From NCBI GenBank assembly GCA_964486025.1, contig CAZAKL010000002.1, positions 2,312-66,311 on the forward strand: a stretch of 64,000 bases of DNA. Direction: 5' to 3'. The notes beneath the pieces were generated by a model. The model did no database searches, had not been told where the DNA came from, and worked only from the letters and a program-made list of their open reading frames with translations. Each line of letters begins with the position of its first letter. The first letter of the stretch is position 1. The position numbers were made by a program, and so were the translations under genes. Positions 3,627 through 33,297 of this stretch are shown piece by piece. This DNA is from an uncultured archaeon (GTDB lineage: Archaea; Iainarchaeota; Iainarchaeia; JAADDC01).

Positions 3627-5009
3627 GTGGACGGCTTCTTTCGCCTGGCCGAGCGGTTGGCAGACGTGGTGCGCAAGTGGGACGATATTTTGGTTGTTGG
3701 GCACTACGACGCCGATGGAATCACGTCAACGGCAATCCTCGTCTCTGCATTGCGCTCCTTGGGGAAGGAAGTGCGATTCGTGAACCTAAAGCAGCTCTAC
3801 TCCGACGAGCTGGACCGTGTTGCGGACGCAGGAGAATACTTTATCTTCGCGGATATGGGCGTCGGGCAGCTACCTCTCCTGCGCGAACGCCTCGAAAAGC
3901 CCTTCATCATATTAGACCATCACCAGATTCCGCCGGGAGAGGACTATCCACTCCTTTTGCACCCTCACATCTTTGGAATGGACGGGGCACGCGAAATCAG
4001 CGGGGCGGGCGTTGCATATGCCCTCTACCGTGCCCTTACAGGGAAAACAGACATGGCACATGTGGCGGTTGTTGGTGCCGTTGGAGATGTGCAGCTGGTG
4101 GGCAATCAGCTCGTTGGCTTTAACCGGGAGGTTCTTCTCCGCGATGCCATAGCCTCTGGGAAGCTCTTTGCCTACAGGGACCTCGCTCTCTACGGACGCG
4201 CATCCCGCCCACTCCCCTACATGTTCCTCTACTCCTCCGACCCGATACTTCCCGGCCTGACGGCCAACGAAGAAGCGGTTTTTGACTTTCTCCGTTCTGC
4301 TGGTATAGAGTACGTTCGAGACGGCGTCTGGAGACATTACGTGGACTTAAGCGAGGACGAGAGAAGGCGATTGTTCTCGGAGTTGGCAGTGTACCTTTCG
4401 CGGGTTGGCTGGAGTGAGGAGAGGATTCTGCGGCTTATAGGCGAGGTCTACGAGCTGAGCGGAGAGGACAGGCATTCTCCCCTCTTCGATGTTAGGGAGT
4501 ACGCAACGCTTCTCAACGCCTGCGGTCGTCACGGCCAGCCGGAGATAGGGGTGGAGGTCGCCCTCGGGGACAGGGATGAGTGGTATAGAAAGGCACTCCA
4601 CCTCCTCTCTGAGCACCGTGAGGCTTTGCGGAGGGGGATAGAGTGGGTTGAGCGCTCGGGTCTGGATGAGCTCCCTCACTTATACTACTTCCACGCAAGG
4701 GACGCCATTCCCCCATCTCTGGTGGGCATTGTGGCGGGTATGCTCTACGGTTCCGGTATCGTCCCTGCCGACAGACCCATCGTTGGCTTTGCCTATGACG
4801 AGGGGGAGTACGTGAAGGTATCTGCCCGTGCCAGTGGCGACCTCGTCAGAAAGGGCGTAGACCTATCCGTTGCTGTGCGGCGGGCTGCGGAAGCGGTTGG
4901 CGGCGAGGCGGGCGGGCACAAGCCGGCGGCAGGTGCCAGAATAAGGAGGGGGGAGGAGGAAGAGTTCCTGCGTGCTCTTGATGAAGAGATTGGAAAACAG
5001 ATTACTTGA
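3627..5009 (+). CDS. archaeal RecJ-like DHH phosphoesterase (GAN/Cdc45-like 5'-3' exonuclease)
   Basis: DHH family motifs are present: HYDADG, DHHQIP and a C-terminal GGH. 460 aa matches archaeal GAN/RecJ size. GTG start. Confidence 0.85.
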   Translation: MDGFFRLAERLADVVRKWDDILVVGHYDADGITSTAILVSALRSLGKEVRFVNLKQLYSDELDRVADAGEYFIFADMGVGQLPLLRERLEKPFIILDHHQIPPGEDYPLLLHPHIFGMDGAREISGAGVAYALYRALTGKTDMAHVAVVGAVGDVQLVGNQLVGFNREVLLRDAIASGKLFAYRDLALYGRASRPLPYMFLYSSDPILPGLTANEEAVFDFLRSAGIEYVRDGVWRHYVDLSEDERRRLFSELAVYLSRVGWSEERILRLIGEVYELSGEDRHSPLFDVREYATLLNACGRHGQPEIGVEVALGDRDEWYRKALHLLSEHREALRRGIEWVERSGLDELPHLYYFHARDAIPPSLVGIVAGMLYGSGIVPADRPIVGFAYDEGEYVKVSARASGDLVRKGVDLSVAVRRAAEAVGGEAGGHKPAAGARIRRGEEEEFLRALDEEIGKQIT

Positions 5010-9981: not shown

Positions 9982-10743
9982 ATGGCTCTGTTCAAGAGGG
10001 TTCTGGCGGACGCTGCAGATGTGGGCCTCCTTGTGCTTGTAATTCTATTCCTCTACGGCCTCTTCTACGCGTTCGGCTCGGTCCTTTCATCCGTTCAGTC
10101 TGCATACGTTCTCACCATTCTCAGCTCTTCGAATCCGATTCTATCCATGCGGCCAGCGTTTTACGATGCTCTCTCTTCCCTGAGTGACCCCCTGACGCTT
10201 CTTTCCATGCTCATTTATGGCATACTTCTGACGTACCTCTCGCTCGTTGTCATTGGCTGGATAGGTAAAAAACGCATTGGCTACCCCGAGAATCCATTCA
10301 AACGGGCAGTGGAAGCGATTATACCGTTCATTATACTTGGAATCGTTGTATTTGCGCCCATTCTCCTGCTTTTCTCCCTCATGCTCTACTTCTCCTCAAA
10401 CGTTACCCTTCTGGTGACCTTTTTCGTGCTATTCCTCGTCTTTTTGCTTGTCTACGTCCCAATCGTGTCCCCTTCCATGGTTTCCCTCGTTCTCGACGCC
10501 GATTCTGTCTCCAAGGCCCTGAGGAATGGTGTGCTCGTGGGTCGGCGGAGGTGGATACGCATACTCATTTACATGTTTGGTGTGGCGGTTGTCACATCCC
10601 TCTTTCTGTATCTCTTCAACGCGATTGCGATGTACTTCCCGCCGCTCTCCGATTTCCTCCTTGTTCTCTACCAGGCGATATCCTTCGTCCTGCCACTGGC
10701 CGTGCTGACAGAGGTGTATGTGGCGGACACTTACGGTGAGTAG
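9982..10743 (+). CDS. integral membrane protein (about 7 TM), hypothetical
   Basis: 253 aa, highly hydrophobic. The stop abuts the tmcA start. Confidence 0.6.
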   Translation: MALFKRVLADAADVGLLVLVILFLYGLFYAFGSVLSSVQSAYVLTILSSSNPILSMRPAFYDALSSLSDPLTLLSMLIYGILLTYLSLVVIGWIGKKRIGYPENPFKRAVEAIIPFIILGIVVFAPILLLFSLMLYFSSNVTLLVTFFVLFLVFLLVYVPIVSPSMVSLVLDADSVSKALRNGVLVGRRRWIRILIYMFGVAVVTSLFLYLFNAIAMYFPPLSDFLLVLYQAISFVLPLAVLTEVYVADTYGE

Positions 10744-15821: not shown

Positions 15822-16151
15822 ATGCATGCAAAGGATTTAACGATTTCTGAGGTTTCCGGCGACGGCGAGCGTGTTGCAGTTCTGTGCACGGTTGTCGAAT
15901 TCGAGCCGAATAGAATGGAGGGAAAGATTGACGACGGAACGGGTATGGCCACCTTTATACTTGAAGACTCGCTCTTCGCCGAGAAAATTCGGGAAGGCGG
16001 CCTCGTTCGCGTTGTAGGCAGGGCTTATAAATCGGAGGATGGACTATTAATTAGGGCGGAAGTCATTCAGGATATGAGCGAGGTTGACCCGGCTCTTTAC
16101 GCTCAAATACGCGAACTGGAAAGGAGGGTTTACAATGAAAGTGGTGTTTGA
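15822..16151 (+). CDS. small OB-fold nucleic-acid-binding protein (RPA/tRNA_anti-like)
   Basis: About 109 aa from the ATG at 15822 (the TTG at 15789 is less likely). The pattern GERVAVLCTVVEF...DDGTG...VRVVG is typical of RPA-type OB folds. Confidence 0.5.
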   Translation: MHAKDLTISEVSGDGERVAVLCTVVEFEPNRMEGKIDDGTGMATFILEDSLFAEKIREGGLVRVVGRAYKSEDGLLIRAEVIQDMSEVDPALYAQIRELERRVYNESGV

Positions 16152-16884
16152 TAGCGCAGATGTTCTTAAGAAGAGTGTGAAGGCTCTTTCAGCTCTTATC
16201 GACGAAGGGGAGTTCATATTCGATGAGGAGGGCATGAAGCTGCGCGCGACTGACCCATCTAAGATTGCGATGGTGGATTTCTCCCTTCCAAAGCATGCCT
16301 TCCGCGAGTACGATGTTCCCGGTCCTGTGAAGGTGGGCCTGAATCTCTCCGACCTTCAGGACGTCTTCAAGAAGGCGAAGTCCTCAGAGTCCGTTGAAAT
16401 GTCACTTTCCGAGGACGGTTCCCGCTTCACGATTGAGCTCGTCGGCCGTGCGCGCCGCCGTTTCGTCCTGTCGGTCCTCGACCTCGGCGGTATGGAGCTT
16501 CCGCTCCCGAAGATACCATTCACCGCCACCGCAAAGGTTATAGCGGACGTATTCGCATCTGCGCTGGACGACGCATCTTCCTTCTCTACGCACGTGACCA
16601 TAGAAGTCACGCCAGAGGAATTCACGATGCGGGCGTCTGGCAGCAAGGGCGAGTACGCCCTTGAGCTGAAGAAGGACGTTCACGATGCGCTCCTCGACCT
16701 GAATGTCTCCGAGCGTGCAAGGGCATCGTACCCGCTTGACTACCTGGAGGACATGGTCTCACAGGCAAACAAGAGCGCTGCAATAACCATTTCCCTCTCG
16801 ACGGATGCGCCCCTGAAGCTGGCGTATGCGATAGGTGATGCAAACTTTGTATACTTCCTGGCGCCCAGAATAGAGACGGGTTGA
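16135..16884 (+). CDS. pcnA: DNA polymerase sliding clamp PCNA (paralog A)
   Basis: 250 aa, PCNA fold signature throughout, C-terminal LAPRIE. GGAGG lies 7 nt upstream of the ATG. Confidence 0.9.
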   Translation: MKVVFDSADVLKKSVKALSALIDEGEFIFDEEGMKLRATDPSKIAMVDFSLPKHAFREYDVPGPVKVGLNLSDLQDVFKKAKSSESVEMSLSEDGSRFTIELVGRARRRFVLSVLDLGGMELPLPKIPFTATAKVIADVFASALDDASSFSTHVTIEVTPEEFTMRASGSKGEYALELKKDVHDALLDLNVSERARASYPLDYLEDMVSQANKSAAITISLSTDAPLKLAYAIGDANFVYFLAPRIETG

Positions 16885-16888
16885 TAGC

Positions 16889-17638
16889 ATGGAGCAGCTA
16901 CACGTCCTCCTTGAAGACCCGAAGCCGTGGAAGCAGGCGGTGGATGCCCTCTACTCCTTTCTTCCCGAGGGTGTTTTTTACTTCGGGGAAGATGGCGTCC
17001 GCCTGCGGGCGATAGACCCATCTCAAGTCGTCTTTGTGGACTTCTTTGCTCCGCGTTCCATATTTTCCAGATATGAGCTGGCGAGCTCCCCCATACGTGT
17101 TCCCCTTGACCTCAATGAGTATGCAAAGATTCTGGCGCGCGTTTCTGGAGGGGAACGGCTGAGCATGGTGCTTGAGGACGTTAATCTCTCTGTTGTCCTT
17201 GAACGACCGGACGGTTCTCTCCGCAGGGAGTTCTACGTCCCTCTTATGGATATCCCGGACCACGATGTGGAAATGTCCCCCGTTGAGGGGGCGGTCACTG
17301 TCCAAATCCTCGGCAAGATTATGAAGGATGCCCTGAAGGACGCTGGCATATTCTCGTCCTCCGCCGTCATTGTAGCACGTGACGACATATTCATGGTGGA
17401 GGCAAAGGGACAGGCGGGCGTGACGAGGACTGTTGCCAGGAAGGGCGACGCCGTCAGAATAGAGGGCGGTCCGGAGGCAGTCTCTCGTTATTCCCTCTCA
17501 TTCCTGCAGAATATTATACGTCCGGCGGACCCGGACAGCTTTGTGACGCTTTCCTTCGGCAACGACACGCCCCTGAGCATATCCTACAAGATAGGGGACA
17601 TATCGCTCCGTTTCTATCTCGCACATATGATACTCTGA
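16889..17638 (+). CDS. PCNA paralog B (divergent)
   Basis: 249 aa with PCNA-like architecture (both N and C domains). Only distant identity to paralog A. Confidence 0.8.
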   Translation: MEQLHVLLEDPKPWKQAVDALYSFLPEGVFYFGEDGVRLRAIDPSQVVFVDFFAPRSIFSRYELASSPIRVPLDLNEYAKILARVSGGERLSMVLEDVNLSVVLERPDGSLRREFYVPLMDIPDHDVEMSPVEGAVTVQILGKIMKDALKDAGIFSSSAVIVARDDIFMVEAKGQAGVTRTVARKGDAVRIEGGPEAVSRYSLSFLQNIIRPADPDSFVTLSFGNDTPLSISYKIGDISLRFYLAHMIL

Positions 17639-17639
17639 C

Positions 17640-17670
17640 GGTTCACATTTCGAACCTTTTCTCTTTTTGT
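17640..17670 (+). terminator. hairpin (GGTTC-7nt-GAACC) followed by a T-rich tract
   Basis: Seen directly after the PCNA-B stop: ggttcacatttcgaacc, then ttttctcttttt. Confidence 0.4.
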
Positions 17671-17692
17671 AGCGTTTCCCCCAAGTTATACC

Positions 17693-18562
17693 GTGGAGTC
17701 CTTTTACGCCGTGTACCCGTTTCTCCCTTCTGCTGCAAGGAGGGCGGAACGTCTTGGTATAGACCCCACTGCCCTCGACGACGCTACCCTCTCGTCTGCG
17801 TCCGACCGTTTCCGACAGATTCTCCTGAAGCACTTTGACCTTCCCGTCTTAGATGAGCGGACGGAGCTTCTGCACTTCATTCTTTTCCGCATGTTTGCGT
17901 CAGCGTTGGGGAGCGACTACTATTATGAGCTGCTCGGGAAGTTCTATGCGGAGAGGGCGCGGCGTTACGACCCCGTGGAATTCTTTGTGGAGCTGGGAAT
18001 AGACCCCTCTGCGATTCCGCTTCCTGAGTATATGAAATACAGCCACATCTACCCGGAAACGAAGCTCTACTACGTTGATGTTGAAAGGGGTATTGTGCAT
18101 CTTGACGACGAGCGTGCACGGCTGTTCGCCGGCGATATCGCGTATACATTGTCCATACGGGGGCTCCCCCTCGACCCGTCGAAGATACCGAAGGCGTACG
18201 TGGACTATGCACGGCGGGCAGTGCCTGTTCGCCGTTCATCTTCTCCAAAGACAGCGAAGGGCTACTCGTTCATAGAGTCCATCCTTTCCACCTCTGGCAT
18301 TCCTGACGGAAGGAAACGCATCATTTTCTACTGGTTAGCGCCGTATCTCGTAAACATAAAGGGTCTGACACCTGAAGAGGCAGTCTCCGTCCTTAACGAG
18401 TGGCTCTCTCGGCAGGGAGGTGGCAAAATACCTCCATCGTGGGTGAAGGATGAAGCGCTCCTTGCGAAGAGGAAGGGTATACGGCCGTGGGGCCTGAAGA
18501 AGGTGGAATCCACCGACCCGGGTCTCGTCAAGATGCTCCGTGGCATGGGGGTGCTTGAATGA
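17693..18562 (+). CDS. cysteine-free helical protein co-translated with PriS (PriL-NTD/PriX-like candidate)
   Basis: 289 aa, GTG start, stop overlaps the priS ATG (ATGA). The motif DGRKRIIFYWLAPYLVNIKGLTPEEAVSVLNEWL resembles PriCT/PriX-type helical modules. No Cys, so no Fe-S ligands. Confidence 0.5.
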   Translation: MESFYAVYPFLPSAARRAERLGIDPTALDDATLSSASDRFRQILLKHFDLPVLDERTELLHFILFRMFASALGSDYYYELLGKFYAERARRYDPVEFFVELGIDPSAIPLPEYMKYSHIYPETKLYYVDVERGIVHLDDERARLFAGDIAYTLSIRGLPLDPSKIPKAYVDYARRAVPVRRSSSPKTAKGYSFIESILSTSGIPDGRKRIIFYWLAPYLVNIKGLTPEEAVSVLNEWLSRQGGGKIPPSWVKDEALLAKRKGIRPWGLKKVESTDPGLVKMLRGMGVLE

Positions 18563-19809
18563 GTGAGCAAATCGCGAGGATACTCAGGGACGCGTTTCGC
18601 CGATATTACAGGTCTCACGACGTTCCGCCGCCCCCGGCTCTGGAGCAGAGGGAGTTTGGCGTCGGTGACTATGGCAGGAAGATTGTGAGGCGGCACATGG
18701 CCTTTGTATCGCGTCGCGAGTTCCGTAACTACCTCAGAGAGGAGGCCCCCCTCTACATTTCGTACTCCGTGGGATACTTTGAGCGCCCCGATGCCACGCC
18801 CATGGAGGCGAAGGGCCTTCTCGGTGCGGATATGATATTCGAGTTCGATGCGGACGAGCTCGGGCTGTTCTCACCAAACGATGTATGGGTCTGCCCCCAC
18901 TGCGGTGCAAAGGGCCTCGTCTCCGAGCTTAGGGGATTCAAAGTGGGGATATGCCCCAAGTGTGGCGACCCTGCAAAGGTTATCATGTTTCCCGACCCTG
19001 AGAGGGAAGAGAAACTGAAGGAAGAGGTCGATACCCTTGTAAAGGATTTCCTAATGAACGATTTCGGCATATCTTCCAAGGAGATATCTATAAACTTCTC
19101 GGGGAACAGGGGATACCATATACATGTCCGCTCCCCTGCGCTGCGAGAGCTGGACAAGGAAGCGCGCATAGAGATTGTCGAGTACGTCACGGGCCAGAAC
19201 ATAGACGTTCGCTACTTCTTCGATGTGTCTAGGGTTCCCCCGCGGGGTCCAAAGCCCACGGACCCCGCATGGAAGGGCAGAATTGCCCGGAACATCATAG
19301 AGATTATTTCGAGGGTGAGCGACGCGTCCGAGCTTGTGCGCATGGGCGTACATCCCGGTGTCGCACGCAGGATTGCACGTGACAGGGGGCAAATCGTCGA
19401 GATGATAGAGAACGGGGTGTGGCCATTCATCGATACGAAGGGTGATGACGCCTTTGCCTCCCTCTCCGCCCTTGTGAAGACGCTGTCGCCATTCATGGGC
19501 AAGGAAATAGATACGAATACGTCTGTGGATATTCACCGCCTCATACGTGTTCCCGACTCTATACACGGAAGCACAGGGCTTCTTGCCAAGAGTATAACTA
19601 ATCTGAAGGCCTTCGACCCGTATAGAGACGCGGTGGCGCTTCCCGAGCGCCCGTACCTGTCTCTGCACGTGGACTATGCACCCGAATTCGAGTTTGCCGG
19701 CGAGACCTGGGGACCGTTTCAGGATATAAATGTGGAGTTACCTCTTCATGTTAGTATATTCCTTTTGAGCAAGGGGGTCGCGCATTGGAGATTAACTACT
19801 CGAGGTTGA
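18559..19809 (+). CDS. priS: DNA primase small (catalytic) subunit PriS
   Basis: AEP motifs FEFDADE, SGNRGYHIHV and IDTNTSVDIHRLIRVPDSIHGSTG. Zinc knuckle CPHC...CPKC. 416 aa. Confidence 0.9.
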   Translation: MSEQIARILRDAFRRYYRSHDVPPPPALEQREFGVGDYGRKIVRRHMAFVSRREFRNYLREEAPLYISYSVGYFERPDATPMEAKGLLGADMIFEFDADELGLFSPNDVWVCPHCGAKGLVSELRGFKVGICPKCGDPAKVIMFPDPEREEKLKEEVDTLVKDFLMNDFGISSKEISINFSGNRGYHIHVRSPALRELDKEARIEIVEYVTGQNIDVRYFFDVSRVPPRGPKPTDPAWKGRIARNIIEIISRVSDASELVRMGVHPGVARRIARDRGQIVEMIENGVWPFIDTKGDDAFASLSALVKTLSPFMGKEIDTNTSVDIHRLIRVPDSIHGSTGLLAKSITNLKAFDPYRDAVALPERPYLSLHVDYAPEFEFAGETWGPFQDINVELPLHVSIFLLSKGVAHWRLTTRG

Positions 19810-20402
19810 GGAACCTTTACCGGCTGGAGAAGCAATCTCATACGCGTCTAACGCGCGTGGAACCCGATTTCTACAGCCTTCTGAAGAAGTATATAGACGA
19901 GGAGAAGAAGGAAGTGGAGCGTGCCTGGCGTGAGCAGGATATACAGCGTCTCGTGCTCTTCGCGAACCTTGTCAAGCTCGTGAACGACATCATATCAATC
20001 CGCCAGCGCAAAATCGTAACGCTCGCCCTTGCCAGCATGTTTGACGAGGCATGGGAGCCGGAGAACATCGTGGGCTGGGAGAAGGACCTTTACCGGGACG
20101 TTGTCGAGACAGTTCGGCGTTACAGGGAGCGGGCCCTTGTGGACGTCGGGCTGAAGGAGGGTGCAGAGCCGCCCGTGGAGAAGGTGACAGAGAGCAGGCA
20201 GTTAGAAGAGAAGCGTTTAAAGACCGTTCGGGTTAAAATCTTAAAAGCGGTCCCGGAGTTTGTAGGTACGGACTTCAAAACATACGGTCCGTACGCTGCA
20301 GGGGAGACCGCGGAGCTGCCAGAAGAGATTGCTAACATCCTGCTGGTCAGGAACTTCGCAGAGGTGATTCAAGATGAAGAGGATTCCAATGCCGAGGTCT
20401 AG
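19785..20402 (+). CDS. gins15: GINS subunit Gins15 (Gins51)
   Basis: N-terminal A-domain pattern ([19 protein letters not shown]) plus the conserved gene position immediately downstream of priS. Confidence 0.7.
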
Positions 20403-33186: not shown

Positions 33187-33297
33187 TGGGGCCGCGGGGA
33201 TTTGAACCCCGGACCTTCGGTTTTCCTCAACCCGTGGCAGTGTTGCCAGAGCGGGTCTTATAAGACCGACGCTCTGACCAGGCTGAGCTACGGCCCC
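33187..33297 (-). tRNA. intron-containing tRNA, anticodon UAU (tRNA-Ile, AUA-decoding) as read by hand
   Basis: Acceptor GGGGCCG/CGGCCCC with A73. D-arm GCTC-AGCCTGGTCA-GAGC. Anticodon stem TCGGT/ACCGA with loop CUUAUAA. A roughly 36-nt intron sits at the canonical 37/38 position. T-arm CGGGG-TTCAAAT-CCCCG. No encoded CCA. Confidence 0.75.

Follow-up and report, generated by a model that had tools for sequence, protein, structure and literature searches.

Does an archaeal primase need the iron-sulfur (Fe-S) cluster of its large subunit? The 4Fe-4S cluster of this subunit is conserved from archaea to humans and its role is disputed, with redox and DNA-charge-transport signaling on one side and a purely structural role on the other. 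The question is raised by a 64,000-nucleotide stretch of DNA from an uncultured archaeon (GTDB lineage Archaea; Iainarchaeota; Iainarchaeia; JAADDC01), taken from positions 2,312 to 66,311 of the forward strand of contig CAZAKL010000002.1 (NCBI GenBank assembly GCA_964486025.1) and referred to here, at its full length, as the window. Directly upstream of priS, the gene for the catalytic small subunit, and overlapping it, the window (G+C content 53.9%) carries an open reading frame (ORF) for a 289-aa protein without a single cysteine. We call this gene priLX; its product is, with very little room for doubt, a PriL N-terminal domain (NTD) joined to a PriX domain. PriLX likely functions as the large subunit of the primase of its clade, an Fe-S-free and probably the sole one.

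priLX is a constrained gene coupled to priS

The original prediction, made from the DNA letters alone, described a 289-aa cysteine-free ORF linked to PriS through an ATGA overlap, with Gins15 following PriS and no canonical PriL alongside, and each of these points was borne out. The ORF (17693 to 18562, no cysteine) begins with GTG, a start backed by the lining up of its N terminus with those of 24 homologues. Its TGA stop at 18560-18562 overlaps the priS ATG at 18559-18561 (...CTTGAATGAGTG...), and priLX and priS are separate ORFs in different frames that share 4 nt. The gene after priS matches Gins51_C, and profile searches of the 64-kb window with both the NTD and the full-length profile of the family matched priLX alone, no other PriL-like ORF being found.

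Direct homologues of PriLX form a small, purely metagenomic family of 28 clusters. Scanning genomes for PriLX, with one genome retained per species, gave 13 loci from metagenome-assembled genomes of DPANN Cluster 1, labeled Candidatus Iainarchaeum or Candidatus Micrarchaeota; three of the records are named 'uncultured archaeon' and one is labeled 'Methanobacteriota'. The 13 assemblies have the WGS prefixes CAYZOD01, JASUTF01, DQUH01, CAYVHT01, JALTCQ01, JAADDH01, JALVAT01, JALTNN01, JAADDC01 (GCA_013154145.1), JALUER01, WAPE01, JALTXX01 and CAYZKO01. The order PCNA-PCNA-priLX-priS-gins51-S27e-eIF2a was kept in the 13 loci wherever the contig reaches, and in these loci the priLX/priS junction overlapped or abutted (GTGA, ATGA or TGATG). 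Identity across related loci was 31 to 85% for PriLX vs. 46 to 91% for PriS. The ratio of nonsynonymous to synonymous substitution rates (dN/dS) of priLX was ~0.02 to 0.25 where dS was unsaturated, denoting purifying selection, and the PriX domain was more constrained than the NTD (dN 0.055 vs. 0.121 against locus L001). With homologues down to 31% identity, kept synteny and these dN/dS values, priLX is a real, constrained gene. At loci L008 to L011 (in L008 at about 4110-4125), priLX ends in TAG and the expected priS start shows no visible ATG, GTG or TTG; the priS frame there opens around ATT or ATA, pointing to either an atypical start codon or a more extended overlap.

PriLX joins a PriL N-terminal domain to a PriX domain

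The protein had been called unrecognised at first, a label that fails, as the Pfam family PF18689 (PriX) and the NCBIfam family NF033412 (primase_PriX) both detect its C-terminal domain (CTD) above their curated cut-offs, the former over aa 191-282 with 78.3 bits against a cut-off of 25 and the latter with 82.5 bits against 50. The alternatives originally offered, a PriL N-domain-like or a PriX-like protein, turned out to apply together, a disordered linker connecting a PriL-NTD with a PriX domain. Both domains come from known families, so the further option of a new primase partner was wrong, while the proposal of a noncanonical Fe-S-free primase subunit is supported by a PriL-NTD carrying a cysteine-free PriX domain.

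The N-terminal assignment was obtained independently of the PriX domain. After that domain had been trimmed from 22 family members, the resulting NTD-only profile was searched against the PDB and matched the PriL-NTD of Sulfolobus solfataricus (1zt2_B, E=5.7e-12; profile 7-179 vs. PriL 7-206). A hidden Markov model (HMM) built solely from the NTDs of canonical four-cysteine PriLs matched the window protein with E=1.4e-16. The AlphaFold2 model computed from the family alignment (predicted local distance difference test score, pLDDT, of 92) consists of two helical domains, aa 1-179 and 189-289. When the model was compared with the PDB by Foldseek, the top 27 matches were primase large subunits throughout, and the NTD matched four archaeal PriL-NTD structures, from S. 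solfataricus, Pyrococcus abyssi and Pyrococcus horikoshii, at only ~19% identity to the Sulfolobus domain.

The best PDB sequence match of the whole protein was chain B of 5OFN, an engineered PriL-PriX fusion known as the Chimera (E=1e-22). The alignment runs unbroken across the fusion point (query 82-278 vs. chain 110-313), and the natural domain boundary of PriLX lies within a few residues of the Chimera junction, PriL 1-211/PriX 42-154.

The C-terminal domain retains residues of the initiating-nucleotide site and lacks Fe-S ligands

Consistent with the family matches, the CTD of PriLX resembles the crystal structure of S. solfataricus PriX (4WYH) in sequence (E=3e-18) and in fold (template modeling score 0.86, root-mean-square deviation 1.8 Å over 97 columns, 38% identity by Foldseek). 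In S. solfataricus, PriX residues D70, R72 and R74 bind the triphosphate of the initiating nucleotide (PMC5700102, PMC6393858). The equivalent residues of PriLX are D205, R207 and R209; across 25 aligned family members, D205 and R209 never vary, and position 207 holds R or K. A helical motif, DGRKRIIFYWLAPYLVNIKGL, had originally been read as PriCT/PriX-like. The PriX part of that reading stands, the motif being the core of the PriX domain, but the PriCT part does not: no PriCT Pfam family matched PriLX at E<=1, and with the gene in a core chromosomal context the PriCT assignment was rejected.

Neither PF04104 (Pfam DNA_primase_lrg, searched at E<=1) nor HMMs of the canonical Fe-S CTD matched PriLX, and comparison of its CTD with canonical CTD profiles by hhalign gave marginal probabilities of 3 to 19%. 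In the multiple alignment, the PriX-type CTD appears collinear with the canonical Fe-S CTD; the cysteine of the 'PPC' motif is replaced, and a loop of ~11 residues that bears the last cysteine ligands is deleted. The PriX-type domain contains no cysteine and therefore holds no Fe-S cluster.

priLX occupies the position of canonical priL

A metagenome scan with the PriS alignment recovered 35 priS loci, at PriS identities of 24 to 74%. Directly upstream of priS, three loci, all close relatives (PriS 55 to 74% identical), encode a protein with a PriX-type CTD and no cysteine, and 27 more distant ones encode a canonical Fe-S-type PriL, of which 22 are full-length (331 to 371 aa, at least four cysteines in the last 150 residues) and five are partial and were found by the Fe-S CTD HMM. 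The two types were mutually exclusive across the 35 loci. Neither lies upstream of priS in the remaining five, three of which have <100 nt of upstream sequence. The other two, contigs L023 and L024 from Hainich groundwater, have 317 and 835 nt upstream of priS in which neither type of PriL was detected, so that not all relatives pair priL with priS.

The surroundings of the two types correspond. The downstream order gins51-S27e-eIF2a is common to canonical-PriL and PriX-type loci, and locus L022 has a two-PCNA operon like that of the window with a PF04104 PriL in the slot. The PCNA pair is present in canonical-PriL locus L057 as well as in L022. P0155, the canonical PriL nearest to the family in its NTD, is encoded in a priL(PF04104)-priS-gins51 array, and the context in L056 agrees. 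Since priLX lies in the slot that relatives use for priL, it is the positional counterpart of priL. Searches with canonical HMMs for an Fe-S-type PriL CTD found no match in 215,608 bases of window and clade loci, which cover mostly the same region. PriLX is thus most probably the only large subunit of the clade, occupying the slot of canonical priL; the slot evidence for replacement is strong and circumstantial.

PriX-type proteins are widespread and their two domains have different affinities

An exhaustive profile search with the NTD alone yielded 863 representatives. The 150 best include 43 with a PriX-type CTD and 83 whose CTD has at least four cysteines, the scores of the two being interleaved. 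The PriX-type proteins fall into three groups, namely D (the clade of the window), T (large, thaumarchaeal) and O (a second Micrarchaeota group), and the genes of groups T and O do not adjoin priS. Nitrososphaerota and other Micrarchaeota have hundreds of proteins of ~305 to 340 aa in which a PriL-like NTD precedes a PriX-type CTD. Group T, which includes P0025 to P0147 and is exemplified by P0113 (CP066694.1, locus L014, 10001-10975), was named 'PriX' automatically by the NCBI pipeline; some thaumarchaeal members (P0025, P0028 and others) carry a precomputed match to PF26466, which may be a recent model of their NTD. Group O proteins, for example P0152 (L053, 6001-6951) and P0166, have two cysteines at nonligand positions, and their genes adjoin Rpr2. 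Among 49 matches to Sulfolobales-type PriX, the full-length ones are stand-alone proteins of 144 to 163 aa; the five remaining matches comprise fragments of 55 to 115 aa and a crystal construct of 129 aa.

Sulfolobales PriX is closest to the CTD of group D (hhalign score 181 vs. 105 to 109 for groups T and O). In a bootstrapped neighbor-joining tree of the CTDs each group was monophyletic, and the split of Sulfolobales plus D from T plus O received 100% support. In the NTD tree, a weak result given a distance method (again neighbor-joining) and ~19% identity, groups D, T and O never cluster (0% bootstrap) and D stands beside canonical PriLs from two-PCNA loci. The NTDs of D, T and O each resemble canonical PriL NTDs no less than they resemble one another, and descent of the three groups, NTD included, from one ancestral 'PriL2' paralogue is unsupported. 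Because the CTD groups with Sulfolobales PriX while the NTD branches beside canonical PriLs, the sequences suggest a mosaic origin in which a resident PriL-NTD came to be linked with a Sulfolobales-subtype PriX module. A broader claim, that the whole DPANN clade replicates with an Fe-S-free PriS-PriLX primase that arose by a natural swap of the PriL Fe-S domain for such a module, is put forward tentatively, at somewhat below an even chance.

The PriX module of the clade was possibly acquired horizontally, for example via a mobile-element primase that combines an archaeo-eukaryotic primase (AEP)-type catalytic domain with PriX, such as P0024. This 387-aa protein, from a 3.2-kb contig of the Joint Genome Institute (JGI), is a single chain with an AEP-like part (motif 'IVFSGNRSFHLHF', weak Pfam DNA_primase_S match) and a C-terminal PriX domain that is 44% identical to the CTD of the window protein. 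P0024 is possibly a primase of a mobile element, one that could conceivably carry PriX modules between lineages.

Two long members of the wider family carry LAGLIDADG-type inteins. P0149 (690 aa, thaumarchaeal, PriX-type) was considered as a PriLX-PriS fusion, an idea that was rejected; its intein lies inside the conserved 'LAPY|..VNVKK' helix just past the NTP-binding motif. In P0205 (725 aa, a canonical PriL), the intein lies right after 'PPC', the first Fe-S ligand. These insertion sites suggest that both proteins are essential.

A model for priming without an Fe-S cluster and its alternatives

We infer PriS binding, NTP binding and primase activity of PriLX from homology, from the coupling to priS and from the precedent of the Chimera. 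By homology with the S. solfataricus PriSLX complex and with the Chimera, the NTD (aa 1-179) would dock on PriS in the manner of a PriL-NTD, and the flexible linker of ~10 residues would give the PriX domain (aa 189-289) the freedom to reach over the active site of PriS. There, D205, R207 and R209 would hold the 5'-triphosphate of the initiating NTP while PriS makes the first dinucleotide. The PriX domain may then stay on the 5' end of the primer and help to set primer length, as in the 'caliper' model (PMC6042085). Translational coupling through ATGA would favor stoichiometric synthesis of PriLX and PriS, and priming would make no use of an Fe-S cluster.

Several points weigh against PriLX being the sole large subunit. 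According to Dombrowski et al. 2020, DPANN Cluster 1 has canonical priS and priL, although their priL call (arCOG and CD-search) may include PriX-type proteins; the JGI name for one such protein is 'DNA primase large subunit'. The long PriX-type genes of Thaumarchaeota and other Micrarchaeota are unlinked to priS, and their products may coexist with canonical PriL as third subunits, so the architecture by itself is no proof of replacement. The window also encodes a second small AEP (Table 1), so that the organism has more than one primase-like catalytic protein. The first two of these points would fit PriLX as an additional third subunit, a 'long PriX' beside a canonical Fe-S PriL encoded elsewhere, as in the PriS-PriL-PriX complex of Sulfolobus, with its NTD competing for PriS or binding something else. 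Characterized PriX always accompanies PriL (PMC5700102), and a location away from priS, as in Thaumarchaeota and group O, suits an accessory gene. Yet in the clade of the window priLX is translationally coupled to priS and lies exactly in the priL slot, which in relatives holds the canonical gene; a single PriS site would be contested by two proteins that each have a complete PriL-NTD; no Fe-S CTD was found in the 215 kb of clade sequence, mostly from the same region; and the engineered Chimera shows that a PriL-NTD with PriX suffices alone. We therefore regard a third-subunit role as unlikely.

The second AEP gene, conserved in locus L016, bears on a different proposal, that PriLX is a degenerate or regulatory remnant of PriL that binds PriS without initiating, priming being left to the small AEP or to an unseen primase. 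The NTD, which evolves faster than PriS, would agree with decay, but the CTD is the more conserved half of the protein, its initiating-NTP residues show no change or only conservative substitutions among family members, PriS retains its catalytic motifs and scores above curated cut-offs, and a homologous module is enough for initiation in Sulfolobus; such a remnant is very improbable. Least credible of all is that priLX is part of an integrated virus or mobile element, where it would serve a primase-polymerase as a PriCT-like helper, outside the chromosomal replisome. PriX, PriCT-1/2 and the PriL-CTD are structurally related, PriCT is typical of mobile-element primases (PMC5862659), and a single-chain AEP-PriX protein does exist in P0024. 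Against this, priLX sits within a core cluster (Cdc6, two PCNAs, PriS, Gins51, S27e, eIF2a and Nop10) that is syntenic in all related loci, no hallmark mobile-element genes adjoin it, and PriCT models found nothing in it.

Other features of the window

Coordinates of priLX, of its domains and of the remaining features are collected in Table 1. The tandem PCNA paralogues directly upstream of priLX are divergent (~27% identical); multiple PCNAs are usually regarded as a crenarchaeal trait (PMC3914693). Upstream of the pair lie genes for a small protein with an oligonucleotide/oligosaccharide-binding fold, a KaiC-like ATPase (minus strand) and Cdc6/Orc1. The small AEP contains the motifs 'MFDIDPE' and 'SGRGFHIHVF' and a cysteine cluster, CAGCSLRFFRRHNLCANC, and has a homologue at the same relative position in the Iainarchaeum locus L016 (1770-2498). 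The gene that follows it (9982-10743) was considered as a hidden PriL and rejected, its product being a hydrophobic membrane protein. ARAGORN reported no tRNA anywhere in the window, despite the Rfam tRNA match on the minus strand.

Table 1. Position, strand and supporting evidence of features in the 64-kb window
Feature	Position	Strand	Evidence
Small AEP/PriS-like gene, second in the window, 239 aa	9038-9757	+	Pfam DNA_primase_S, 41 bits, above cut-off
Two tandem PCNA paralogues (16084-16884 and 16889-17638), directly upstream of priLX	16084..17638	+	Pfam PCNA_N, PCNA_C
Intergenic spacer of 54 nt separating PCNA2 from priLX, possibly a promoter or ribosome-binding region	17639..17692	.	Sequence only
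priLX, 289-aa cysteine-free large-subunit variant, PriL-NTD + PriX (stop codon counted)	17693..18562	+	ORF; Pfam/NCBIfam PriX; PDB 5ofn_B, 4wyh, 1zt2_B; AlphaFold2; Foldseek
PriL N-terminal domain, aa 1-179, predicted PriS-binding module	17693..18229	+	Profile, HMM, Foldseek
Flexible interdomain linker, aa 180-188	18230..18256	+	Sole segment with pLDDT <50; aligns with the 5ofn_B Chimera junction
PriX-type C-terminal helical domain, aa 189-289, no cysteine	18257..18559	+	PF18689, NF033412, 4wyh fold match
D205-G-R207-K-R209, equivalent of the S. solfataricus PriX D70/R72/R74 triphosphate site, predicted NTP binding	18305..18319	+	phmmer alignment to 4wyh/5of3_C
ATGA stop/start overlap of priLX and priS	18559..18562	+	Sequence
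priS, catalytic primase small subunit, 416 aa, with Zn-knuckle	18559..19809	+	Pfam DNA_primase_S, 1e-13; NCBIfam PriS equivalogs; TIGR00335, 147 bits, above cut-off
gins51 (Gins15/51 family), third gene of the conserved cluster	19785..20402	+	Pfam Gins51_C, 4.6e-15
Probable intron-containing archaeal tRNA, 111 nt	33187-33297	-	Rfam tRNA, 62.9 bits

Novelty and significance

In published accounts, PriX is specific to Sulfolobus, Sulfolobales or Crenarchaeota, and the sole PriL-PriX fusion mentioned in the literature that we found is the engineered Chimera. A literature search for PriX in Thaumarchaeota, Nitrososphaerota, Micrarchaeota or DPANN, or for a natural PriLX, returned nothing relevant; the report of the discovery of PriX (Liu et al. 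2015) lay outside that search. Automatic database annotation already gives such proteins the name PriX ('DNA primase noncatalytic subunit PriX' at NCBI), so the PriX domain itself is not new. Apparently undescribed so far are the natural PriL-NTD plus PriX architecture, the fact that it occurs beyond Crenarchaeota and its position in the priL slot of a DPANN clade.

The case for dispensability of the Fe-S cluster has so far come from the engineered Sulfolobus chimera and from in vitro mutants of the Nanoarchaeum equitans primase. A natural lineage with a cysteine-free large subunit coupled to priS would amount to an evolutionary test of the need for Fe-S in primase, and PriS-PriLX would offer a compact two-subunit system to express and assay. 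If our interpretation is true, nature has already done the 2017 'Chimera' experiment, and PriX is not confined to Sulfolobales and need not be a third subunit. With PriX-type domains found on PriL-like NTDs in DPANN Cluster 1 and, abundantly, in Thaumarchaeota, the prevailing view of PriX changes. Calls of 'canonical priL present' in comparative genomics may fail for these lineages, as may PF04104 when it serves as a marker gene.

Comparison with known systems

PriX of S. solfataricus (4WYH; 5OF3 chain C) shares with the CTD of PriLX the PF18689/NF033412 family, the cysteine-free helical fold and the D-x-R-x-R triphosphate motif. Unlike PriLX, it is a stand-alone protein, tethered to the Fe-S CTD of a distinct PriL chiefly through the first ~47 residues of its chain, and the ~150-aa size of Sulfolobales PriX is not matched by the 289 aa of PriLX. 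In PriLX the domain is covalently joined to a full PriL-NTD; the gene lies in the priL slot, coupled to priS, and comes from a DPANN archaeon rather than a crenarchaeon. Groups T and O have the same two-domain layout of PriL-like NTD and PriX-type CTD, at about 305 to 340 aa. They differ in that their genes are not beside priS, their CTDs form a separate subgroup (the 100% split described above) and their NTDs do not group with those of the clade of the window.

Canonical PriL/Pri2/p58 (PF04104; 1ZT2, 5OF3 chain B, 2DLA, 9F26) has an NTD homologous to that of PriLX and, in related lineages, is likewise encoded immediately upstream of priS, with a CTD that presumably serves the same role in initiation. 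In contrast to it, PriLX has no four-cysteine 4Fe-4S CTD and no PF04104 match. The PriCT-1/PriCT-2 domains of plasmid and viral primase-polymerases such as pRN1 ORF904 are structurally, if distantly, related to PriX and PriL-CTD, and the same part in making the dinucleotide has been proposed for them (PMC5862659), but they are fused to the catalytic AEP of mobile elements and have no sequence-family match to PriLX. The NEQ395-type primase of N. equitans and DPANN Cluster 2 is, like PriLX, a DPANN departure from the classical heterodimer, and its Fe-S cluster is dispensable for priming in vitro (PMC10250227). It is a single PriS-PriL chain that lacks the PriL-NTD and keeps the cysteine-ligated Fe-S domain, whereas the clade of the window encodes PriS and the large subunit separately, with a PriX-type domain in place of the Fe-S one.

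The closest counterpart is the Chimera, PriL(1-211)-PriX(42-154) (5OFN), which has the same architecture and nearly the same junction as PriLX. Combined with PriS, it gave wild-type primer synthesis without an Fe-S cluster and was fully active in reconstituted replication (Holzer et al. 2017, PMC5700102). The Chimera was man-made from two Sulfolobus genes, whereas PriLX is natural, is under purifying selection and belongs to another archaeal lineage.

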